A DNA stretch of 64,000 nt, from positions 29,855 to 93,854 of the forward strand of contig JAJPJL010000126.1 in assembly GCA_021324255.1 (NCBI GenBank), written 5' to 3'. Below, piece after piece: positions 9,264 through 19,579 of the stretch. A model generated the notes under the pieces. It was not told where the DNA came from, did no database searches, and saw nothing but the letters and a program-made list of their open reading frames with translations. Each line of letters begins with the position of its first letter. Positions within the stretch are counted from its first letter, which is position 1. The stretch is from Bacillota bacterium (lineage in GTDB: Bacteria > Sysuimicrobiota > Sysuimicrobiia > Sysuimicrobiales > Segetimicrobiaceae). Made by a program: the position numbers and the translations under genes.

Positions 9264-10642
9264 ACCCGCGCGTCACGATCGTTCTCGCCGTGCTCGTCGC
9301 CGCGGTCGCGGGATACATTTTTGCCGTCGACCGGCCTCAGGCGCAGCGCGCCGAGGAGGCGAAGCACCTCGTACAGCTGCCGAAGGCCGACATCACCGGG
9401 CTGTCGGTGACATCGTCCAAGGGGACGGTGGATCTCGAGCGCACGGACGCGACGCACTGGCAGATCACCCGCCCCTTCGACGCGCCGGCCGCGTCGTTCG
9501 CCGTCGGCGATCTCCTGGACGCGGTCACCGGCATCGTGCCGCAGCGCACGCTCGCCGGCGGGGGGGATGCGGCGGCGTACGGGTTCAACGCGCCGAGCCT
9601 GACGCTCGCCCTGCGCGCGTCCGGCGGCCGGTCGGTCACGGTCGTCTTCGGCAAGGCCGACCCGGTCGGCTCGGCCATGTACGCTCGCCTCGCGTCCGGC
9701 ACAGCCGTCTACCTCGTCGACTCGTCGCTCAAGGATGCGCTCTCCAAGTCGGGCGCCGATCTGCGCCAAAAGACGCTCGCCGACTTCGCGAACGCGGACG
9801 TGCAGCAGGTCCGGATCGCCGCGCCCGGGCGCACGCTGGTCGTCGACCGGACGGGGCCCGATCGCTGGCGCATCGAGGGAGCGCCGGCGCCGCATGCGCG
9901 GCCGGCCTGGCCGGCGGACGACTTCAAGGTGACCGATCTGTTCTTTCCGTTGACGACGTCCGAAGCCAAGCGCTTCCATGACGGGGTCACGGATCTCGCG
10001 CCGTACGGCCTGGACCACCCGGCCGTGACGATGGATCTTACGATGAAAGGCCGCACGGAGCCGCTGCGGATCATCGCGACGCAGCGCGGCAAAGTCGCCT
10101 ACGGGATGGTGGCCGGCGCGCACACCGTGCTGGAACTGGACCCGTCCATCGTCGGGAAGCTCACGCCGGCCCCGATTGCGCTCGTGAGCACACGCATCCT
10201 GCCCTATGACCCGCAGAATCTCGTCGCGTTCACGTGGCGGCGGAACGGGCAAACGCTCCAGGTGCGCCGCCAGGGGCCGGGGTTCACGGGCAGCCATCTG
10301 AGCGACCAGGACGTGTCGGACATGTTTTCGGCGATGAACCTGCTGGACGCCGACAAGGTCCAGGAGCTGGGGGCGGCGCCGGCGGGTGCGCCCGCGTTCG
10401 AGATCCAGACCGACGGCGGCGAGAGCGCCCGGTACACGGTGCAGTTCTACGCGCGGCCGAACGGCGGCTGGATCGTCACCGACCGCGCGCTTGGGCTGCA
10501 GTACGCCCTGGCGTCGAACGCGCTCGACGCGCTGCCGAAGTCCATCAAGGCGTTCTTGGGCCTGCCGGCCCCGGCCGCGGCCGCACCGGCGGGCGCGAGC
10601 CGCACGTCGAAGCCGAAGCCCGCGGCGCCTCACAAGCCATAG
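9260..10642 (+). CDS. DUF4340 domain protein, the usual partner of GldG-like proteins
   Basis: The GTG at 9260 overlaps the GldG stop (GTGA). An N-terminal transmembrane helix is followed by an extracytoplasmic domain, and the synteny is conserved. Confidence 0.6.
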   Translation: MNPRVTIVLAVLVAAVAGYIFAVDRPQAQRAEEAKHLVQLPKADITGLSVTSSKGTVDLERTDATHWQITRPFDAPAASFAVGDLLDAVTGIVPQRTLAGGGDAAAYGFNAPSLTLALRASGGRSVTVVFGKADPVGSAMYARLASGTAVYLVDSSLKDALSKSGADLRQKTLADFANADVQQVRIAAPGRTLVVDRTGPDRWRIEGAPAPHARPAWPADDFKVTDLFFPLTTSEAKRFHDGVTDLAPYGLDHPAVTMDLTMKGRTEPLRIIATQRGKVAYGMVAGAHTVLELDPSIVGKLTPAPIALVSTRILPYDPQNLVAFTWRRNGQTLQVRRQGPGFTGSHLSDQDVSDMFSAMNLLDADKVQELGAAPAGAPAFEIQTDGGESARYTVQFYARPNGGWIVTDRALGLQYALASNALDALPKSIKAFLGLPAPAAAAPAGASRTSKPKPAAPHKP

Positions 10643-10649
10643 CGGCCGG

Positions 10650-10686
10650 CGGCCCGGCACGTCGGCGCGGCCGCCGAGCCGGGCCG
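10650..10686 (+). terminator. GC-rich compound hairpin after the ABC-2 operon (CGGCCCGGC...GCCGGGCCG)
   Basis: A 9-bp perfect stem with a structured loop, 8 nt after the stop at 10642. There is no U-tract, as is common for terminators in high-GC genomes. Confidence 0.35.
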
Positions 10687-10766
10687 TGCGATCCCGGCAG
10701 GGTCGCGCGCGCCGATCGACGAACGTAGGCGGCGTTGTCAACGTCGCAGCCACGGACGGACCCTGG

Positions 10767-13049
10767 ATGCCCCACCGCCCGGATGCCCGTCGCGCCGTCG
10801 GATGGTGTCTGGTGGCGCTGCTCTCGCTCGCGCTCGCCGCCCCGATCGCCGCCGCCGTCCCGTCGCCGAATATATGGCCCGCGGTGCTCGCCGCGGATAC
10901 CCTCGACCTGCCGGTCGCGGCAGGCATTCAGTATCACCGCGCGACGCTCGCGACCGCGGACGGCCCGCTCGTCGTGCATCAGATGCAGGTGGACCTCGGG
11001 ACCCCGACGATCCGGCTCGGCGTCGGGCTCGCCCGCGATCGGCTGATGAGCGACGACGAGCCCGTGTCGTCGATGGTGCTGCGCACGGGCGCGATCGCGG
11101 GCGTCAACGCCGATTACTTCGACATTCACCAGTCCGGGATGCCGCTCAACATCGTCGTGCAACAAGGTCAGCTGCTGCGCAGTCCGTGGCGCTGGGTGGC
11201 GTTCGTCGTCGGCAAGGACGGCACCGCGCGCATCGTCCGGTACCGGTGGACCGGCAGCATCACCCTGCCGGAAACGGGCGAGACGCGGGCGCTCGACGGG
11301 TTCAACACCGGGTTGATCCCGAACGGCATCGTGCTCATGTCGAACATCCGCGGGTACGGGGCGCCGCCGCCGGACCCGGCGACGCGCCAGATGGTCGTGG
11401 AGCTGACGGCGCCCGACGAGACCGGACACGCCTTCGTCAAGCAGATGTGGCCGCAGCAGGCATTCTACGCGCCGTTTCCCAACAACGACGTCATCCTGGT
11501 CGGCCTCGGAGCCGGGGCGGACTGGCTCGCGCGGCTCACGGCCGGTAGCCCGGTCCAGCTCAATCTGACGACCGATCCCGATTGGCACGACGCCCTGATG
11601 GCGATCGGCGGGGGGCCGATCCTCGTGCAAAACGGTCAGATCGTCGAGGATCCCGACGCGCCGTCGCCCAAGGAGCGGGACTACCGCTACCCGGTGATCG
11701 CCGTGGGCATCGGCCGCGATGGGCACACGCTGACGTTCGTCGAGGTGGACGGCCGGCAGCCGGCCCTCAGCATCGGGCTGACGCGCCCGCAGCTGGCACA
11801 GTATATGCTGCGGCTCGGCGCGGCCCAGGCCATGGCGTTCGACAGCGGCGGCTCCGCGACCATGGTGGTGCGTCTGCCCGGAGCGCCCGCGCCGGCCGTC
11901 GTGAACTCGCCGTCCGACGGCCAGGAACGCCCCGTGGGAGACGCGATCCTCGTGTACAGCTCGGCCGTCCCCGGGCCGCCGGCCCGCGTTCTGGTCAATG
12001 CCGGACGTCCCCTGGAGCTGTTCGCGGGCGCGAGCGCGACGCTGCCGCTGATCGGCGTGGACGCGCAAGACAATCCCGTGGCGCTGAGCGCGCCGGTCTC
12101 GGCCACCGTATCGCCGCCCACGCTAGTCACGATCGCCGCCGGGGCGGCCGCGATGCCGGCGCGCCCGCCGGGGGCCGGTGACCCCGCGGCGCAGGTCGCT
12201 CCGCCCGCCGAACCGGCGCCGTCCCTCAGCGTCACGGCCGGCCCGTCCGCGGGAAGCGGGACGCTCCAGGTGCAGAGCGGGGACGCGGGCGGGTCGATCC
12301 CCGTCTCCGTCGTCACGCGGCTGAGCCGGCTCGTCGTCAGCCCGGCGTCGGTGGCGGTGGCGCCGGGTGCCGGCGCGCAATTCACGGTGAGCGCCCAGGA
12401 TGCCGGCGGCCGGCCCGTCGGCCTCGCCGGTGCGCCCGTGGCATGGAGCGTCACGCCGGGCATTCTCGGCGCGATCACGCCGGGCGGCGCGTTCGTGGCC
12501 GGCGACGCGTTCGGCGCCGGAAGCGTGACGGTGCGGGCCGGCGGCGCGGTGGGGCACGCGCAGGTTGCGATCGGCAGCACCGCTCAGTACCTGAGCGTCT
12601 TCGATCGCGGCGCGTGGTCGTTTCGCGGGTATCCCGCGACGGTCTCCGGATCGGTCGGTCTCGTGAGGGATCCAGCGCACGATGGTCACCCCTCGGCGCG
12701 TCTGGCGTTTGCGCTGGACGGCACCGGCACGCGCGCCGCCTATCTCCTCACGCAGCTGCCCCTGCCGGGCGCTCCCACCGGCATCAGCGTCTGGGTGTAC
12801 GGGGACGGAAGCGGCGTCTGGCTGCGCGGCGCCTTCGACCAGGCCAACGGTGATCGCGGGACCGTCACGCTGGCGCGCCGCGTGGATTGGACCGGCTGGC
12901 GCTCCATCACGGTCCAGCTGCCCCCGGGCTTGGCGCTGCCGATCACCTGGGCGACCTTCTACGTGGTGGAGACGGACGCGTCGAGGACGCCGCACGGGGT
13001 GCTCTACCTGAGCGATCTGCGCGCGATCTACCCGGCGGGCGCCAAGTAG
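10767..13049 (+). CDS. Secreted phosphodiester glycosidase family protein (NAGPA/DUF2233-like) with C-terminal Ig-like (Big_2-type) repeats
   Basis: Signal peptide (CLVALLSLALAAPIAAA). The central region resembles DUF2233 uncovering-enzyme-like domains. The C-terminus has repeated beta-rich segments typical of Big_2 domains. Confidence 0.6.
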   Translation: MPHRPDARRAVGWCLVALLSLALAAPIAAAVPSPNIWPAVLAADTLDLPVAAGIQYHRATLATADGPLVVHQMQVDLGTPTIRLGVGLARDRLMSDDEPVSSMVLRTGAIAGVNADYFDIHQSGMPLNIVVQQGQLLRSPWRWVAFVVGKDGTARIVRYRWTGSITLPETGETRALDGFNTGLIPNGIVLMSNIRGYGAPPPDPATRQMVVELTAPDETGHAFVKQMWPQQAFYAPFPNNDVILVGLGAGADWLARLTAGSPVQLNLTTDPDWHDALMAIGGGPILVQNGQIVEDPDAPSPKERDYRYPVIAVGIGRDGHTLTFVEVDGRQPALSIGLTRPQLAQYMLRLGAAQAMAFDSGGSATMVVRLPGAPAPAVVNSPSDGQERPVGDAILVYSSAVPGPPARVLVNAGRPLELFAGASATLPLIGVDAQDNPVALSAPVSATVSPPTLVTIAAGAAAMPARPPGAGDPAAQVAPPAEPAPSLSVTAGPSAGSGTLQVQSGDAGGSIPVSVVTRLSRLVVSPASVAVAPGAGAQFTVSAQDAGGRPVGLAGAPVAWSVTPGILGAITPGGAFVAGDAFGAGSVTVRAGGAVGHAQVAIGSTAQYLSVFDRGAWSFRGYPATVSGSVGLVRDPAHDGHPSARLAFALDGTGTRAAYLLTQLPLPGAPTGISVWVYGDGSGVWLRGAFDQANGDRGTVTLARRVDWTGWRSITVQLPPGLALPITWATFYVVETDASRTPHGVLYLSDLRAIYPAGAK

Positions 13050-13114
13050 CCGCGCGACGCGCCGGAGGGGACGCGTCGCCGCGCGTCGAACACACGCGCG
13101 TTCCTGGACGCCTC

Positions 13115-15262
13115 ATGGCCTACGCCGTGCGATCCCTGTTGAGCCTCACGCTCGCCGTCGGGCTGCTCGCCAGCACCGCGGGGCCCGTGTTGCCGCAATC
13201 GCCTCCCACGCTCGCCGACGCGGTGGCAGCCTACGCGCGCGGCGACGTGCCCGGCGCCAGGATGATGTTGACCGCGCTGGCGCAGGACACCACCGCCGAC
13301 GGCGGGCGGGCATCGTACCTGCTCGGCGTCACGGAGCTTGCCGCGCGGCACTATGCGCCGGCCGCGCAGTTGTTCGTGCGTGCCGGGCAGGCCGTACCGG
13401 TGCTGGCCGACTACGCCGTCTACAACGGCGCGGTCGCGGCCTTCAAGATGGGCGAGTACGCGGCGGCCGCGCAGGGATTTCAGGACCTCCTGCAGCGATT
13501 TCCGGACAGCACGCTCCGGAAGGCGGCGGCGTTTCAGCGCGCGGAGTGCCTGCGCAACCTCGGCGCCCCGGACGCGCCCGACGCGTACCACGCGTACATA
13601 GAGATCGCGGGCGACGATCCGCAGACCGCGCAGGCGTGGTACGAGATGGGCGGCGCGCTGGAGCGCCAGAATCGATGGGGAGACGCGGCACAGGCCTATC
13701 GCCGCGTCCTCTGGGTGTTTCCGCAGACGCCCTACGCCCAGCCGGCAGCCCAACGCCTCCGCGCGCTCGCGGCCTCGCATCCGTTGCCGCCGGATGCCAC
13801 GCCGCCGGCGGCCGTGTACGAGCGCGGCGCCGGCGACTTCGCGGCGGGTCAGTTCGCGGCCGCGCGCGCCGAGCTCACGCACGCACTCCAGATGCCGGGC
13901 GGCTGGGTCGTGGCCGATCAAGCGCTGTACACGCTCGGCGTGATCGCCTACCGCAGCGGGCAGCTCGGCTCCGCCGCGGCGCTGTTCCGGCGGGACGTGG
14001 CGCTCGGGCAGGCCCACGCGGATGACGCTTCCTATTATCTTGTGCGCATCGCCCTCGCCCGCCGGGCCGAGGCCACCGCGGTGGCGCTTGCACGCACGCT
14101 GGCCAGGTCGTTCCCGCGGTCGTCGTTGGCGCCGCGCGGGCTCTATGCGGTGGCCGCGTTCCGGGAGGAGCGGGGCGCCGTGGAGGCGGCCGGCGCGCTC
14201 TTCGACGAGGCGGCGGCCGCCTTCCCCGGCACCTACTGGGGCGACCGCGCCGGCTGGGAGCTCGGCTGGATTCGCTACCGCATGCACGCGTGGCAGGGCG
14301 CGCTGGCCGCGTGGCGGCGGCTCGCCGGGGTGGCCGGCGACGCCGTCATGGCCGCCGCGGGATCGTACTGGGCGGCGCGAGCCGCCGCGGCGGTCGGCGA
14401 CGGCGCGGGCGCCCAGAACGGCTATCTCGTCACGGCCGCGAAGTTTCCGGAGACGTTCTACGGTCAGCTCGCGGCCGCGCAGGCGGGCGTCCCGCTGCGC
14501 CTCGCGGTCGCGCCACCGATGCCCGATCCGCCGGCGGGCGAGATCGCCTCGCTCGACCGCTTCCGTGAACTGGACGCGCTGGCGCAGACGGCCGACGCGA
14601 CCCGCGAACTCGAGGCCGCGGCGGCCGCCGCGCCGGCCCAAGACCGTGCCGCCGTGACGCTTCTGCTCGGTCAATACTACGAGCGGCAGCAGCAGATCGC
14701 GCGCGGCATCCTCGAAGCCGAACAGGCGCAGGCGCTCGGCGGCGCGCCCGGCGCCTTGCCGCTCGCGGTCTGGGAAGCGCTCTACCCTCGCCCGGAGTGG
14801 TCGACTATCGCGCAGGCCGCCGGGCGGGCGGAGGTCGATCCGTATCTCGTCGCCGCGGTGGTGCGCGAGGAGAGCCGCTTCGACCCGGCCGCCGTGTCCC
14901 CGGCCGGCGCCTACGGGCTGATGCAGCTGATGCCGGGCACGGCCAGGAGCGCCGCGCGGAGCGCCGGCGTGGCGCCGCCGGACCTGCGTGCGTTGACCGA
15001 TTCGCGCATCAACGTGCAGCTGGGCACGACGGTGCTCGCCGAGTTGCTCCGGCAGTTCGGGAGACCGGACCTGGCGCTCGCCGCGTACAACGCGGGGCCC
15101 GGCGCCGTGCGGCGCTGGCAGGCCCAACACGACTCGAGCGACCCCGCGGCGTTCGACGAGTCGATCCCGTACGACGAGACCCGAAGCTACGTCAAGACCG
15201 TGTTGCGCTCCGCCGCGATCTATCGCTGGCTGTACCGGGACGGGCATCCCTCGCCGCAGTAA
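13115..15262 (+). CDS. Soluble lytic murein transglycosylase (Slt family) with TPR-like repeats
   Basis: Signal peptide, superhelical TPR-like region, and a C-terminal SLT catalytic motif (REESRFDPAAVSPAGAYGLMQLMPGTA). Confidence 0.85.
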   Translation: MAYAVRSLLSLTLAVGLLASTAGPVLPQSPPTLADAVAAYARGDVPGARMMLTALAQDTTADGGRASYLLGVTELAARHYAPAAQLFVRAGQAVPVLADYAVYNGAVAAFKMGEYAAAAQGFQDLLQRFPDSTLRKAAAFQRAECLRNLGAPDAPDAYHAYIEIAGDDPQTAQAWYEMGGALERQNRWGDAAQAYRRVLWVFPQTPYAQPAAQRLRALAASHPLPPDATPPAAVYERGAGDFAAGQFAAARAELTHALQMPGGWVVADQALYTLGVIAYRSGQLGSAAALFRRDVALGQAHADDASYYLVRIALARRAEATAVALARTLARSFPRSSLAPRGLYAVAAFREERGAVEAAGALFDEAAAAFPGTYWGDRAGWELGWIRYRMHAWQGALAAWRRLAGVAGDAVMAAAGSYWAARAAAAVGDGAGAQNGYLVTAAKFPETFYGQLAAAQAGVPLRLAVAPPMPDPPAGEIASLDRFRELDALAQTADATRELEAAAAAAPAQDRAAVTLLLGQYYERQQQIARGILEAEQAQALGGAPGALPLAVWEALYPRPEWSTIAQAAGRAEVDPYLVAAVVREESRFDPAAVSPAGAYGLMQLMPGTARSAARSAGVAPPDLRALTDSRINVQLGTTVLAELLRQFGRPDLALAAYNAGPGAVRRWQAQHDSSDPAAFDESIPYDETRSYVKTVLRSAAIYRWLYRDGHPSPQ

Positions 15263-15523
15263 CACCGCCCCGTTTTTGCCGCAAACCTAGCGCAAGGGAT
15301 ATTCAAACTTCCCGAGAACTTCCCTGGACCGCGTCGGAACCGCGGGGGCCGCGGTCATCACGGCCGCGGGGAATCGATCGAGGGAGCGCAGGATTGCAGG
15401 AGCCGGGGGAATCATCCTCCCGGCGTATGCTGCCGGGCGCCGGGCTCATGCTATTGATCGAGATGTCGCAGCCAACGTGGATGCCACCGGTATCCAGCAC
15501 TCGACGCTAAAGGACGGAGCGCA

Positions 15524-16807
15524 ATGACCGCAGCACACGCACGGGCAGCACTCATCGTGGTTGCAATCGCCGCGGGAATCGCCGTGGGCAGCGGGGCGGC
15601 CGTGGACGCGCCGGCTGCGCAGGCTGCGGCCGGATGGACTCGGGTGAGCATCGCGGGCTTGCTCGTGTCCGTCGACGCGGGGCGCCACACGCTGACGTTG
15701 GAGACCGCGCGCGGCCGGCTCCGGGTGCGGACCACCGCGTTCACGACGCTCGCAGTGGCGCCGTCGCGCGACGCTCCCGTCCGCCTGCCGGTGCGGTCGG
15801 TCGTGGAAGGCGTCCAATTGTCGGACGGTTCCGTGATCGCCGGCGTCGTGATCCTGGGCGGCGCCGGATCACCGCACGAGAGCGGCCGCCTGTCGGCGAC
15901 GCCCATCGGAACCTGGCTCGGCCAGCTCGATCCACCCGTCGGCGCCCACCAGACGGTCGCCTCGTTGTCGCAGGGTGAAGACGGGGTGCCGGCCGGGGTT
16001 CACTCCGGCGTCGATCCGCCGGTGAGGGATTTCTCGCCTCCCAAAGGCGCCGGCGGCAACGGCGGTGCGGGCGGCCCAGGCGGCGGCCGGAATTCGGTCA
16101 CCGGGCTCGGCAACGGCGGTCGCGGCGGCAACGGAGGGGACGGTGGCGACGCGTTCGGGCAGTTCAACGGGGGCAACGGCGGCGCGGGCGGCGCCGGGGG
16201 CGCGGGCGGAAACGACAACGGCGGCAACGGCGGCGGGGGCGGGAACGGCGGGGACGGCGGCGCGGCGGGGGCCGGGGTCGACGGCGGCAACGGCGGTGAT
16301 GGCGGCCAGGGCGGTGGCGGCGGCAACGGGGCGGTCGGGCCAAACGGCGGCAACGGCGGGCGCGGCGGCAACGGCGGCAATGGAGGCTCGTGCGCCGGCG
16401 CAGGGTGCTCGGGCGGCAACGGCGGCAACGGCGGCATGGGCGGCAACGGCGGCATGGGCGCCGCCGGCGGAGCCAACGGTAGCGGCGGAGCCGGCGGCAA
16501 CGGCGGCAATGGCGGTGGATGCGTCGGCGACGGATGCTCGGCCGGCAACGGCGGCAACCGCGGGCTCGGCGGTAGCGCCGGAGTGCCGACGGGGAGCCGC
16601 AGCGGGCAGGATGGTCAGAATGGCCAGAACGGCCAAAACGGACGGCCGGGGTCGGGCGGCGACGGTGGGAACGGCGGCAACGGGGGAAACGGTGGGAGCG
16701 CCTCGTGGGGCGGCGGCGCCGGCGGTTCGCCGGGCCCGGACGGCATGGGCGGCCGGGGCGGCGGCTGCGCGGGCAACGGGTGTTCTCCGGGCCGCGACGG
16801 CCACTGA
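15524..16807 (+). CDS. Secreted glycine/asparagine-rich repeat protein (PGRS-like GGNGG repeats with three CxGxGCS motifs)
   Basis: Signal peptide and a roughly 150-aa N-domain, followed by about 270 aa of GGNGG/GGAGG repeats with interspersed pairs of cysteines. Codon usage is consistent with the genome. Confidence 0.6.
   Translation: MTAAHARAALIVVAIAAGIAVGSGAAVDAPAAQAAAGWTRVSIAGLLVSVDAGRHTLTLETARGRLRVRTTAFTTLAVAPSRDAPVRLPVRSVVEGVQLSDGSVIAGVVILGGAGSPHESGRLSATPIGTWLGQLDPPVGAHQTVASLSQGEDGVPAGVHSGVDPPVRDFSPPKGAGGNGGAGGPGGGRNSVTGLGNGGRGGNGGDGGDAFGQFNGGNGGAGGAGGAGGNDNGGNGGGGGNGGDGGAAGAGVDGGNGGDGGQGGGGGNGAVGPNGGNGGRGGNGGNGGSCAGAGCSGGNGGNGGMGGNGGMGAAGGANGSGGAGGNGGNGGGCVGDGCSAGNGGNRGLGGSAGVPTGSRSGQDGQNGQNGQNGRPGSGGDGGNGGNGGNGGSASWGGGAGGSPGPDGMGGRGGGCAGNGCSPGRDGH
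16030..16800 (+). repeat. Coding tandem GC-rich repeat (units of GGCGGCAACGGCGGN)
   Basis: Short degenerate tandem units visible in the DNA. They correspond to the GGNGG protein repeats. Confidence 0.7.
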
Positions 16808-16853
16808 CGAGCGCCGCTGCGGCGCCATCGCGGGGCGCGCGCCGTGGTGGGGA

Positions 16854-17615
16854 TCAGGACCGCCCAGCGCTCCGGATCGTGCCCACGAGCCGGTAGCCTG
16901 ACGGCGTCAGCGTTGCGATGCGGAGCCGGCCGCCGACCAGCGGGTGAATCGGGCCGTCACGCCGCCCACGCACGAACCGGGCCACGCCGAGCGTGATCGT
17001 TCCGAGGAACCTCGCCAGATCGACGCCGTCTGTGAGGCTCATGTCGCGCAGCGGCACCACGAATTCCAGGTTGGCGACCTGCTCCCGGGTGGTCGCGTCC
17101 AGCGCCGACAGATCCATCGCCGGATCGATGCCCTTGAAGAGCCGGCTGATCGCGAGACCCTGGCCGCGCCAGTGAAAGTTCGGCGCGTCGGTGGTGGAGA
17201 GCAGGCGCCGCTCGCCGGCGGGCCACACGGCCTCGTAGATCCGGCCGACGCCGTCGGGGCCGTAGGCGCCGATCAGAAAGCCGACCGCCTCGCGCGGCGG
17301 CGCGTCCTCCCGTGCGGGTTCATCGGCGCCGAGAAAGGCGAGCAGCTCGTCGGCCACCGCCGCCGCGTCCCGCACGGCGCCGGCGGACCGGCCGGCGGCG
17401 TATCGCCCCGCGAGCGCCGCAATCGTGTGACCGCGGACGTGGCTCCGGCCGTGCGTCACCGCCGCGGCGTGCCGTCCCAGCGCGAACACCTTGTGCGCGC
17501 CGTCGGTCACCACCTCGGCCCACCGGTGATCCGCCGCGTCGCGCCATCGCGTCGTCCGGCTGTCCGCCGCGAGCACGATGCCCTCTGAGAGTGAGATGGC
17601 AATCGCAATCGTCAT
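16854..17615 (-). CDS. Anbu-like / proteasome-type Ntn-hydrolase (orphan 20S beta-like subunit)
   Basis: N-terminus MTIAIAISLSEGIVLAADSRTT, with Thr immediately after Met and the GxVLAxDSRTT pattern of proteasome beta/HslV/Anbu catalytic subunits. About 250 aa. A strong SD (AAGGAGG) precedes the ATG. Confidence 0.6.
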   Translation of the reverse strand: MTIAIAISLSEGIVLAADSRTTRWRDAADHRWAEVVTDGAHKVFALGRHAAAVTHGRSHVRGHTIAALAGRYAAGRSAGAVRDAAAVADELLAFLGADEPAREDAPPREAVGFLIGAYGPDGVGRIYEAVWPAGERRLLSTTDAPNFHWRGQGLAISRLFKGIDPAMDLSALDATTREQVANLEFVVPLRDMSLTDGVDLARFLGTITLGVARFVRGRRDGPIHPLVGGRLRIATLTPSGYRLVGTIRSAGRS

Positions 17616-17675: not shown

Positions 17676-17749
17676 TGAGCCGGACGGGCACGCGTGACGC
17701 GCCACAGAGTCGCTCCAGGAGACGCCTTTCTTACGTGGATCGCATCGGC

Positions 17750-19579
17750 ATGGCGAGACGTGCGTCACGGCACGTGTGGCTTGCAGGCATCCTGATCCTC
17801 GCGGGCGCGCCGGCCGGCGGCCCCGCGGCGGCGCAACCGTTCTCGGACCGCGCCGCCCCGGCCTGGGTCTCGGCCGCGGTCCGCACGCTTGTCCGCGACG
17901 GCGTGGTGGCGGGGCCCGCGGCCGACGCGCAGGTCGCTCCGCTCCTCCGCGATGGTCGCGCTCACGTCACGCGCGCGGAGGTCGCGGTATGGCTCGCGCG
18001 CGTCCTCCCGTTGATTGCGAACCGGCTGCAGGCGTCTCCTCCCGCGGGTCCGATCTCGCGCGCCGACCTCGCCGCGCTGCGCCGCCTCATCGACGAATTT
18101 CAGGCCGAGCTGGCCTCGCTGGATGTCCTGACGGACGTGCTGCGGCGGCAGGTGACCGATCTCCAGCCGCTGCCGAGGCAGGTCAGGATCAGCGGCGATG
18201 TCCGTCTCCGGTACGAGCTCAGCCGCACGGCGCTCAACAACCCCGGGTTGGGCCCGATCGCGCCGTCGAGTGGCCAACCGCTCCTCAACCTGGCAAGCTT
18301 CCGGGCCCGCCTGGAGTTCGACGGCGGCCTGACGGATGACGCCCGGTTCCGGCTGCGGCTGACGACGTTCAACCAGATCGGGACGACCGCCGGGACGTTC
18401 AGCATCGTCAACGCGCCGCCGGCGGGCCAGCTCAACTCCATGTTCCTCCCGTTCAACAGCGGGCAGCAGGCGTCGATGACGATCATTGACATGTTCGAGT
18501 TCGACTGGGAGCGCGCGTTCGGGCTTCCGCTCGAGCTCCAAGCCGGCCGCCTCGGCGGCGATACGTGGTTGCCGCGTAACGGCGATCCACTGTACCCCGT
18601 GTCTCCGCCGCCCGGCCGCATCTCGCTCCTGCGGCTGGGCCCGATCGGACTCCTGCTCGACACCGCGAAGGATGTCATCGGCGAGCGCAGCCTAGAGACC
18701 TACGGGGTGGACGCGCTCGTGGCGAGCTACCGTCCCGACGGCTTCCGGGTGCAGGCGCTGCTCGGCGGGACGGGCGGCGTAACGTTCGCGGGTGGCAGGG
18801 TCGAGAGCGTGGTGGCGCCCGGCGTGACGGTCGGGGCCAATTTTCTCACCGACGCCTGCGACCCGGGCGGCGGCGTGAACAACGCGGAGCTCGTATCCGA
18901 CCTGACGCTGCTCGGCGCCGGCAAGGGCGTCGCCCAATGTTCCTTTGTCTGGTGGGGGGCGCAAAACGGATGGGTGCCGGCCGCCAATGCCGGCACGACG
19001 AGCCCGATCACCAACATTCCCGGGACCGGGTACGGCGCCGACATCGACGCGGCGCTCGCGCCCAACCTGCGCCTGCAGGGCGAGATCGCCTGGTGGTACG
19101 ACCCCGCGGCGCAGACGACGGGGCTCGGCTGGCAAGTGCAGGCGGTCCTGGGGCACGCGGGCGGGCGGACGCCCGCCGTGGTGCTCGGCTATCAATCGTT
19201 CGATTCGGCGTTCTATCCGGCGTACGGCGGCGCTGAGGATCCCGTCGTCGGCTTCATCTGGCCGGGCGGCTTCCGGGACGCGTTCGGGATCATCGACCTG
19301 CCGCCGCTGGCGGGGTGGACGCTGTCCGCCGGGTACGAGACCGGCACGTCGCTCGGCGTCGGCCCGCAGCCGGGGGCGGTCGGATTTGGCGGCCCGGCGT
19401 TTGCGAACGCCGTGTGCGAGAGCTGCCTCGGCTCCGGCCAGCCGTTCTCCGGCTGGCTCGCCGCGGCCGCCCACGCGGTCGGCGGGAACGCGACGGTGCG
19501 CCTCTACTACTATTCGTGGCAGCTGAACGGCGCCTCGCAGGACGACACGTACCGCGTAGAAATCGACTACCGCTTCTAA
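17750..19579 (+). CDS. SLH-domain outer-membrane beta-barrel protein (OmpM/Slp-like porin)
   Basis: Signal peptide, an SLH motif (FSDRAAPAWVSAAVRTLVRDGVVAG), a coiled-coil segment, then an amphipathic beta-rich C-terminal half ending in ...YRF. Confidence 0.6.
   Translation: MARRASRHVWLAGILILAGAPAGGPAAAQPFSDRAAPAWVSAAVRTLVRDGVVAGPAADAQVAPLLRDGRAHVTRAEVAVWLARVLPLIANRLQASPPAGPISRADLAALRRLIDEFQAELASLDVLTDVLRRQVTDLQPLPRQVRISGDVRLRYELSRTALNNPGLGPIAPSSGQPLLNLASFRARLEFDGGLTDDARFRLRLTTFNQIGTTAGTFSIVNAPPAGQLNSMFLPFNSGQQASMTIIDMFEFDWERAFGLPLELQAGRLGGDTWLPRNGDPLYPVSPPPGRISLLRLGPIGLLLDTAKDVIGERSLETYGVDALVASYRPDGFRVQALLGGTGGVTFAGGRVESVVAPGVTVGANFLTDACDPGGGVNNAELVSDLTLLGAGKGVAQCSFVWWGAQNGWVPAANAGTTSPITNIPGTGYGADIDAALAPNLRLQGEIAWWYDPAAQTTGLGWQVQAVLGHAGGRTPAVVLGYQSFDSAFYPAYGGAEDPVVGFIWPGGFRDAFGIIDLPPLAGWTLSAGYETGTSLGVGPQPGAVGFGGPAFANAVCESCLGSGQPFSGWLAAAAHAVGGNATVRLYYYSWQLNGASQDDTYRVEIDYRF

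Follow-up and report, generated by a model that had tools for sequence, protein, structure and literature searches.

A gene in the 64-kb window (the whole stretch of 64,000 nucleotides analyzed here) encodes a protein that ends in a long array of Gly-Gly-X triplets. The locus raises the question of whether this array is a loose, variable repeat or a defined module of an exported protein, and how closely it is related to the glycine-rich domains known from other organisms.

A conserved gene and its N-terminal region

The open reading frame starts with ATG and lies exactly where the initial annotation had placed it. It is a real, conserved gene, because it combines a ribosome-binding site, a signal-like N terminus, the codon statistics of a high-GC gene (GC of 0.76, 0.69, and 0.85 at codon positions 1, 2, and 3), and full-length, syntenic orthologues. 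The features of the locus, in coordinates of the window, are as follows.

15443..15461, forward strand: upstream block GGCTCATGCTATTGATCGA, a candidate promoter or leader element (from the orthologue alignment)
15510..15519, forward strand: ribosome-binding site AAGGACGGAG (from sequence and orthologue alignment)
15524..16807, forward strand: complete coding sequence with ATG start, 427 amino acids plus stop
15524..15622, forward strand: signal-peptide-like N terminus, residues 1–33 (read by eye from the sequence and the orthologue alignment)
15629..15928, forward strand: conserved N-terminal core domain, residues 36–135, 57 of 100 columns invariant
15929..16045, forward strand: variable Pro/Ser-rich linker, residues 136–174, 4 of 37 columns invariant
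16000..16557, reverse strand: Pro-rich antisense ORF of 185 amino acids, mirroring the GGN codons and considered non-coding
16046..16804, forward strand: Gly-Gly-X triplet domain, residues 175–427, ∼12 segments of 3–5 triplets with conserved loops
16151..16168, forward strand: conserved aromatic loop (A/P/S)FGQF(N/S), residues 210–215
16391..16411, forward strand: Cys loop 1, CAGAGCS, residues 290–296 (orthologue forms CAGAGCS, CDGAGCS, and CVGGGCT)
16520..16540, forward strand: Cys loop 2, CVGDGCS, residues 333–339 (orthologue forms CVGDGCS, CVGDGCS, and CIGDGCS)
16766..16786, forward strand: Cys loop 3, CAGNGCS, residues 415–421, followed by the conserved C terminus PGR(D/N)GH

The orthologues, of 429 and 427 amino acids, are found in two further uncultured lineages, one of which is a metagenome-assembled genome (MAG) labeled Bacillota. 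L002 (identical to L003) is the nearer and L004 the more distant, at a dS of ∼0.5–1, and all conservation statistics given here rest on the comparison of three lineages only (the window gene, L002, and L004). The initial annotation had made its reading depend on conservation of the frame in relatives, and the frame is conserved. The family is rare, with three lineages among the several billion proteins searched, and the protein is a lineage-restricted hypothetical one, a modest curiosity. The MAG name includes “Centralia,” presumably the coal-fire-heated soil site; if the name does mean heated soil, the lineage may be heat-tolerant.

An AGGA/GGAG sequence precedes the ATG by 5–13 nucleotides. 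The ribosome-binding site is kept in L002, and L004 has AGGAG ahead of a GTG start. Farther upstream, the block GGCTCATGCTATTGATCGA is identical across the three lineages, with diverged flanking DNA; a stem, as a structure or leader hairpin, is faintly suggested here, and a role as a sporulation-sigma element is not claimed. Neither a sigma-70 promoter nor an intrinsic terminator was found in a scan around the gene. The upstream neighbor is 261 nucleotides away, and the downstream neighbor is convergent. TPR-SLT lies upstream in L001 and L002, and a convergent downstream ORF of 253–273 amino acids is present in L002–L004. In all six frames of the window, the pattern C.G.GC occurs elsewhere only as two isolated matches, both outside Gly-rich sequence, and the window contains no second Gly-rich ORF of this type.

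The N terminus consists of MTAAHAR, a hydrophobic stretch of 15 residues, and PAAQA|AA. Judged by eye, its n, h, and c regions are of the secretion type, in agreement with the signal peptide proposed earlier, and cleavage is predicted after the conserved PAAQ(A/G); the −3/−1 rule was used to place this site. The “about 150-aa globular region” originally described behind it does not exist as a single block: a conserved core of 100 residues (dN/dS 0.28–0.41) is followed by a fast-evolving linker of 39 residues (dN/dS 0.69–0.92). The core shows β-strands in a low-confidence AlphaFold2 model and has no match in Pfam, NCBIfam, or the PDB. The only relatives of the core are P0001, P0002, and, weakly, P0004; an exhaustive HMMER search with the N-domain contributed only P0002 and two marginal matches, one of which (P0003) looks spurious. 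P0002 is treated as an assembly artefact rather than as a sign of strain variation, because this read-level “SRC” assembly shifts to the +1 frame and is ∼68 amino acids short.

Triplet-periodic constraint and fixed length of the tail

The tail comprises 253 residues, rather than the ∼270 first estimated, and consists of 52% Gly, 12% Asn, and 4% Asp, with no Glu, 7 Pro, and 13 hydrophobic residues. Nine clean (GGX)4–5 segments alternate with conserved loops of 2–9 residues, three of which have the form C-x-G-x-G-C-S/T. The autocorrelation of Gly shows decaying maxima at lags of 3, 6, 9, and 12, corresponding to a period of 3 residues, and the period of the DNA repeat is 9 nucleotides. Residues 340–377 are less regular and partly collagen-like (GQDGQNGQNGQNGRPG). 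FGQF, the sole aromatic loop, is invariant in the three lineages and in P0001; the tail contains one Trp, which is not conserved.

Conservation follows the triplet phase. In the clean triplets of the three orthologues, 83 of 84 Gly positions are invariant (G1 41/42, G2 42/42), compared with 19 of 42 X positions. The tail evolves at a dN/dS of 0.15–0.22, below the values of the core and the linker, and measures 253, 254, and 252 residues in the three lineages, with 3 gap columns at a dS of up to ∼1. The earlier description of the tail as antigenically variable or prone to length variation is not borne out between lineages by these lengths, which were kept over a dS of ∼0.5–1. The strongest constraint in a protein can fall on an extreme low-complexity repeat, and such repeats should not be equated with antigenic or length variation. 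At the DNA level, the units are only 64–80% alike; each resembles the unit at the same position in L002 more than it resembles its paralogues, and in the comparison with L004 this applies in only some cases. Rather than loose low complexity, the tail is a precisely conserved array.

All six cysteines and their spacing are invariant in the three orthologues (6/6), more than chance would give. The three CxGxGCS motifs reported by the initial annotation do exist, but they are not evenly spaced, the gaps being 43 and 82 residues. Each Cys pair closes a unit of 43–44 residues with the order (GGX)5, loop, Gly-rich segment, CxGxGCS, and units 2 and 3 of this array are set apart by a 38-residue insert.

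A proposed polyglycine-II sandwich and its alternatives

Our preferred reading, to which we assign a probability of ∼55%, is that of an exported envelope protein whose GGX tail forms a disulfide-containing sandwich of polyglycine-II (PGII) helices with a role in the envelope. The protein would be exported by the Sec route and belong to the cell envelope in an uncultured high-GC lineage whose closest relative is labeled Bacillota, and the host probably possesses an outer membrane. The mature protein would comprise a small β-rich N-terminal domain, the fast-evolving linker, and the 253-residue C-terminal domain. Each of the ∼12 (Gly-Gly-X)3–5 segments would form a left-handed PGII helix of ∼35–45 Å, and the helices, packed antiparallel, would build a flat sandwich of two layers in which both triplet glycines lie between helices, in contact positions, and the surface is lined by X (mostly Asn, Ala, Ser, and Asp). 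The tail has the features expected of such a fold, namely a 3-residue repeat with Gly wherever a position would face inward, segments of ∼9–15 residues, and short loops. The chain would run as helix–loop–helix hairpins of ∼38–44 residues each, so that every second loop would fall on the same edge, where the invariant FGQF loop and the three C-x4-C loops would lie together. In an oxidizing extracytoplasmic space, the cysteines would most likely pair locally, giving three disulfides that staple the ends of the hairpins, although C-x4-C could instead bind a metal or form intermolecular links.

The product would be a rigid, polar plate of fixed size, probably serving the envelope as a structural or binding module. 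It may bind glycan, since the neighboring genes are envelope-themed and encode an SLT protein (lytic transglycosylase), an NAGPA glycosidase, and a protein with a weak match to SLH-type porins. More tentatively, the protein may found an undescribed family of disulfide-stapled PGII sandwiches with fixed architecture in the envelope of this lineage, in which two flat, Asn-lined faces and a Cys/aromatic edge would bind a ligand of periodic structure, for example a cell-wall glycan or the surface of a mineral or crystal. No significant sequence match to a relative of known structure or function was found. Scans of the protein against Pfam, NCBIfam, and PHROGs gave no family, and for Pfam at E ≤ 1 this also holds for L002 and L004; phmmer with the tail alone against 5.8 billion proteins gave no scoring match; sequence comparison with solved structures (the protein and a profile of the N-domain) gave only chance matches to titin and catalase-peroxidase; and the viral contigs scanned contained no relatives.

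Could the tail frame not be a functional gene at all, the antisense Pro-rich ORF being real or the DNA a non-coding GC-rich repeat? The antisense frame is open in the three lineages, and its dN/dS (0.17–0.25) is nearly as low as that of the Gly frame (0.13–0.18) because wobble positions are common to both frames. However, only the forward frame links the repeat to the conserved N-domain, the ribosome-binding site, the signal-like start, and the conserved C terminus. The antisense frame is interrupted by a stop codon inside the aligned block, and in the orthologues (182 and 213 amino acids) it starts with TTG at inconsistent positions. Of all six frames, the Gly frame shows the lowest dN/dS, with values above 1.8 for the Ala-rich frames, and differences at forward codon positions 3:1:2 amount to 58:12:10 for L002 and 98:35:32 for L004. 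A non-functional tail frame is scarcely credible, and the antisense ORF, which lacks a conserved start and an N-domain, is most plausibly a mirror artefact, as had been suspected. It is unlikely, to a lesser degree, that the tail is a disordered Gly/Asn-rich spacer, gel-forming or prion-like, with the cysteines cross-linking a coat, a sheath, or a similar matrix. The extreme composition would suit such a spacer, HMMER treats every similarity of the tail as compositional, and AlphaFold2 yields only low-confidence coil for the tail (pLDDT 34.6 for the full-length protein with a 2-sequence alignment, 39.1 for the tail alone), values at which the models are unusable. Disordered regions normally accept indels and evolve fast, and the adjacent linker behaves in this manner (dN/dS 0.7–0.9). 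The tail does not: it is the slowest-evolving part of the protein, with its few gap columns at a dS of ∼1, its conservation is specific to the triplet phase, and its loop sequences are kept.

Among ordered folds, a collagen-like triple helix (a Gly-X-Y trimer as in bacterial Scl and BclA, trimerized by the N-domain) would account for Gly at every third residue, for unbroken runs of up to 11–13 triplets, and for the classic G-X-Y pattern of GQDGQNGQNGQNGRPG. Yet conserved loops break the Gly register after most runs of 4–6 triplets, the longest being those of 11–13, and X is itself Gly in most triplets. Gly at X and a scarcity of Pro and charged residues, as seen here with 7 Pro, disfavor a collagen helix; Pfam Collagen is also unmatched at E ≤ 1, and we regard this fold as quite improbable. 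Still less probable is a Ca2+-binding RTX-like β-roll, or another parallel β-helix of GGxGxD-type repeats. GGNGGD strings fit GGxGxD on paper, and the initial annotation had listed Ca-binding glycine-rich repeats among its candidates. That proposal is not supported: the loosened nonapeptide GG.G.[DN].[LIVFYWM]. matches the window protein once (residue 204) and the two orthologues not at all, the period is 3 residues and not 9, Asp is sparse and Glu absent, none of the 13 hydrophobic residues marks a recurring core position, and Pfam HemolysinCabind gave no match.

Comparison with known glycine-rich systems

Nothing nearer than PE_PGRS was found in the literature on GGNGG or Gly-Gly-X bacterial proteins. 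PE_PGRS proteins and the window protein (the latter by prediction) are exported, carry long GGA/GGN-type triplet runs, and evolve at a dN/dS below 1. The PGII-sandwich models of PGRS domains by Berisio and Delogu assign 3–5 triplets to each PGII helix and preserve the triplet glycines (PMC9436101, PMC10216338). We liken the window tail to these models because its 4–5-triplet segments and preserved glycines match them. Triplet runs of the PGRS type (3–5 triplets with preserved glycines) are present in the tail, whereas polymorphic length and a hydrophobic Phe/Trp edge are absent. The resemblance to mycobacterial PGRS noted by the initial annotation therefore extends to composition and probably to architecture, but not to membership: PF00934 (PE) and PF21526 are unmatched at E ≤ 1 in the window protein, L002, and L004, with P0005 as the Pfam control (7.5e-33 for PE and 8.8e-10 for PF21526). 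A profile of the three orthologue tails found PE_PGRS proteins as its best compositional matches (E of ∼1e-4, 40 bits), and none of its matches, which include assorted Gly-rich and even eukaryotic proteins, contains CxGxGCS loops.

Unlike PE_PGRS proteins, the window protein possesses neither a PE domain, a GRPLI linker, and an ESX/type VII context nor hydrophobic “GxxGWLxG” foot loops; conversely, its three C-x4-C loops have no counterpart in the PE_PGRS-type matches retrieved. Its gene is single-copy in the 64-kb window, whereas PE_PGRS is a multigene family, and its host belongs to an uncultured lineage with a nearest MAG labeled Bacillota and not to the mycobacteria. In pe_pgrs33, many in-frame indels distinguish M. 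tuberculosis strains that are otherwise nearly identical, whereas the window tail is fixed over a dS of ∼1. Folded PGII sandwiches are rare, and PGRS domains, despite their medical importance, have so far eluded experimental structure determination. The window protein is short, single-copy, and length-fixed, its architecture looks comparable to PGRS, and it probably has disulfide staples built in; it could be a convenient model for studying the folding of GGX arrays and the ligands of such plates.

The snow-flea antifreeze protein, whose structure is solved, is a Gly-rich PPII bundle with disulfides, which are cited as one of several factors that stabilize an otherwise core-less bundle (PMC11364801). 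Snow-flea and springtail antifreeze proteins (HhAFP and GrAFP) share with the window tail Gly at every third residue, short helices, and turns. However, HhAFP and GrAFP are eukaryotic, much smaller (6–13 helices), and without detectable sequence homology to the window protein, and nothing in our data points to an antifreeze role. In the receptor-binding domain of the gp38 adhesins of T2-type phages (S16, PP01), an experimentally solved PGII sandwich, conserved Gly-rich motifs form the scaffold, and the functional loops lie on one edge (PMC12892980). The loops of gp38 are hypervariable, whereas those of the window protein are conserved, and unlike the phage adhesin the window gene is cellular and chromosomal, encodes a predicted signal peptide, and has no PHROG match. 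If the proposed fold is correct, the window protein would represent a non-mycobacterial, non-phage, cellular PGII plate, more accessible to study than the PE_PGRS proteins.

Architecture of the glycine-rich protein

An ORF scan of the window (G+C content ∼72%) yields an ATG-initiated frame for the glycine-rich gene.

15524..16807 (+), glycine-rich gene, ATG ORF of 427 amino acids

The sequence AAGGACGGAG lies 5–13 nucleotides before the ATG. The G+C content by codon position is 0.76/0.69/0.85 for the whole ORF and 0.76/0.61/0.84 for the first 184, nonrepetitive codons, which is the coding pattern usual for the window. The protein starts with MTAAHAR, followed by a hydrophobic stretch of 15 residues and PAAQA/AAG. 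By the classical −3/−1 rule for signal-peptide cleavage sites, this N terminus looks like a Sec signal peptide.

The initial annotation of the protein was essentially right, and three corrections are needed. The glycine-rich tail (residues 175–427) is present and comprises 253 rather than ∼270 amino acids. The N-terminal region, described as globular and ∼150 residues long, exists but consists of a conserved core of 100 residues and a variable linker of 39 residues. The three cysteine pairs are found as described but are not evenly spaced, with distances of 43 and 82 residues.

The tail consists of 52% glycine and 12% asparagine, contains only 13 hydrophobic residues, and lacks glutamate and lysine. 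Its DNA has a basic period of 9 nucleotides with higher-order periods of 63–129 nucleotides, and the glycine autocorrelation peaks at lags of 3, 6, 9, and 12 residues with a steady decay (0.45, 0.33, 0.24, and 0.17). Nine clean (GGX)4–5 segments of 12–15 residues each are separated by loops of 2–9 residues. The chain can be read as a series of hairpin units, each 38–44 residues long and arranged as (GGX)n–loop–(GGX)n–loop. Three units (residues 254–296, 297–339, and 378–421) are closed by a C-x-G-x-G-C-S loop (residues 290–296, 333–339, and 415–421; six cysteines in total) and an earlier one by an invariant FGQF loop; residues 340–377 form a less regular stretch containing GQDGQNGQNGQNGRPG. 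If the segments run antiparallel, the FGQF loop and the three cysteine loops would lie on one edge. Across all six frames, the window contains only two further C.G.GC matches, both isolated and outside glycine-rich sequence, and no second glycine-rich gene of the same kind.

Relatives and gene neighborhood

The glycine-rich gene is genuine, rare, and lineage-restricted. Among 5.8 billion proteins, the N-terminal 181 amino acids have one relative (P0001, 60% identical), a partial protein whose contig stops within the repeat. Three further proteins were added with an N-domain profile from two sequences, against which 1.84 billion cluster representatives were exhaustively searched by HMMER. P0002, from a read-level assembly (SRR5579884) of the same organism, carries the N-domain of the window with one substitution; compared with window 15524..16901, it slips into the alanine-rich +1 frame and misses ∼68 amino acids of repeat, which most likely reflects an artefact of assembly at the protein level. 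P0004 (172 amino acids, without the glycine tail) is a marginal relative, and P0003, a discoidin-like repeat protein, looks like a chance match. Scans at the DNA level recovered full-length genes at three loci. L002 (JAJPIA010000141.1, “Bacillota bacterium Centralia_MAG_233”) encodes a protein of 429 amino acids that is 84% identical to that of the window, L003 (from a JGI metagenome) is identical to L002, and L004, the full-length form of the P0001 lineage, encodes 427 amino acids with 64–66% identity, depending on the aligner. Another contig, L001, whose protein is that of the L004 lineage, stops inside the repeat. Repeats of this type are readily mis-assembled, and public entries should not be taken as strain variation.

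The loci carrying the gene are syntenic to the limit of each contig.

4442..15262 and L001 1..9568, common gene string: GHL10-like hydrolase (−), ABC ATPase, ABC-2 permease, GldG-like ABC_transp_aux protein, DUF4340 protein, NAGPA phosphodiester glycosidase with invasin-like Ig domain, 716-aa TPR + SLT lytic transglycosylase
L001, upstream string: GHL10-like hydrolase, ABC transporter with GldG-like and DUF4340 proteins, NAGPA glycosidase, TPR-SLT lytic transglycosylase
16854..17615 (−), 253-aa ORF (MTIAIAISLSEGIVLAADSRTT...), convergent with the glycine-rich gene, 46 nucleotides from its stop
17735..19579 (+), 614-aa protein, downstream of the glycine-rich gene

The common string is kept between lineages, and every gene of it in the window is envelope- or polysaccharide-themed. 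TPR-SLT also lies upstream of the glycine-rich gene in L002, and a convergent ORF of 253–273 amino acids lies downstream in L002, L003, and L004. The 253-aa ORF of the window, whose counterparts occupy this position in L002 and L004 (89% and 70% identical, respectively), has no match in Pfam, NCBIfam, PHROG, or PDB sequences; its N terminus is, as we take it, reminiscent of proteasome/Ntn-hydrolase subunits. The N-terminal 190 residues of the 614-aa protein (91% identical in L002) give a weak, below-cutoff NCBIfam match (E 1.3e-9) to por_somb, a cyanobacterial SLH-anchored porin family, and the protein has no match in Pfam. The por_somb match suggests a diderm host, in or close to Bacillota, with a wall-tethered outer membrane. 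Together, the SLT transglycosylase, the NAGPA glycosidase, and the por_somb-like protein point to an envelope role for the glycine-rich protein in a host that may possess an outer membrane.

Within the upstream stretch 15392..15461 (+), the 19-nucleotide block GGCTCATGCTATTGATCGA is identical in all three lineages, whereas its flanks diverge. In the RNAalifold prediction, the block base-pairs with GCAGGAGCC and encloses an inner hairpin with three compensatory changes; z-scores for single sequences reach just −1.7 to −2.2, and the L004 fold is different. The block is a candidate promoter, leader RNA, or SLT-gene terminator.

Reading frame and constraint on the tail

We determined dN/dS in six frames over a gap-free 582-nucleotide repeat block, comparing the window with both orthologues. 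The glycine frame, in which the initial annotation had placed the gene, is kept in its relatives: the orthologues are full length, and none of the other five frames has a dN/dS as low as this one (0.13 and 0.18). Two alanine-rich ORFs overlap the repeat in other frames.

16065..16901 (+), alanine-rich ORF of 278 amino acids
15869..16828 (−), alanine-rich ORF of 319 amino acids

Because dN/dS exceeds 1.8 versus both orthologues in the two alanine-rich frames, these ORFs are side products of GGC-rich DNA. As such, they are open to mis-calling as genes, and P0002 seems to be a case of this. In a proline-rich antisense frame, dN/dS is almost as low (0.17 and 0.25), as expected from the wobble positions that it shares with the glycine frame. 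An internal stop, inconsistent TTG starts, and the lack of an attached domain contradict an antisense gene.

The dS is ∼0.3–0.5 between the window and L002 and ∼1 between L004 and either of them. The tail measures 253, 254, and 252 amino acids in the three lineages, with only three gap columns. Triplets of the nine clean segments have an invariant first glycine in 41 of 42 columns, an invariant second glycine in all 42, and an invariant X in 19; over the whole tail, 125 of 133 glycine columns, 54 of 118 other columns, and all six cysteines are invariant. The dN/dS amounts to 0.15–0.22 for the tail, 0.28–0.41 for the N core, and 0.69–0.92 for the linker. This comparison speaks against an intrinsically disordered tail, since the adjoining linker demonstrates what fast, indel-tolerant evolution is, and the tail is unlike it.

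The DNA units of the window repeat are 64–80% identical among themselves and 78–91% identical to their positional counterparts in L002, which are thus closer than paralogues; in the L004 comparison, this holds for some units only. Copies within the repeat families are degenerate, sharing 60–85% identity with the reference copy. At a dS of ∼0.3–1, neither concerted evolution nor length instability is apparent. On this time-scale, the fixed length and the degenerate units contradict the variable antigen of slippage-prone length suggested in the initial annotation. The glycine repeat is a fixed-size module under tight constraint.

Proposed fold and comparison with known families

Because of the strict three-residue constraint with two obligatory glycines, the segments of 4–5 triplets (∼37–46 Å at ∼3.1 Å per residue), and the short conserved turns, we propose a polyglycine-II (PGII) sandwich. 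As far as sequence can tell, the pattern is the signature described for such sandwiches. In the model of the mycobacterial PGRS domain, helices comprise 3–5 triplets, and the first glycine faces the sandwich interior, which has room for no other residue (PMC9436101, PMC10216338). Solved PGII sandwiches include the receptor-binding domains of phage gp38 (PMC12892980), and snow-flea antifreeze protein is a glycine-rich PPII bundle whose stability has been attributed in part to disulfides (PMC11364801). A cysteine-stapled PGII sandwich is probably the best explanation of the repeat module. For fold, disulfides, export, and role, we infer an exported protein, presumably of the envelope, whose C-terminal sandwich of ∼12 helices would be stapled by three local C-x4-C disulfides and would show polar, asparagine-rich faces. 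AlphaFold2 models reach a pLDDT of 34.6 (full length, 2-row alignment) and 39.1 (tail alone, single sequence), values at which fold matches carry no meaning.

An RTX β-roll, along the lines of the calcium-binding repeat suggested by the initial annotation, is not supported: even a loosened nonapeptide, GG.G.[DN].[LIVFYWM]., matches the window only once (residue 204) and neither orthologue, the period of the tail is 3 rather than 9, aspartate accounts for 4%, and Pfam gives no match. A collagen-like helix would also be built on glycine triplets, but the longest Gly-X-Y runs comprise 11–13 triplets and most only 4–6, with conserved loops breaking the register between them. Moreover, X is mostly glycine, proline is scarce, and Pfam again gives no match.

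The N-domain matches no described family in Pfam, NCBIfam, or PDB sequences, and searches of viral contigs and PHROG returned no phage relatives. The cysteine loops occur in none of the glycine-rich matches retrieved with the tail profile. The noted resemblance to PGRS extends to composition and, probably, architecture, whereas membership is ruled out by the lack of a PE domain and of a match to PF21526 in any of the three orthologues (a control PE_PGRS, P0005, matches). In contrast to PGRS, the tail possesses neither the hydrophobic foot loops nor the polymorphism of that domain. The glycine-rich tail is a new variant within a known domain class and brings no new principle.
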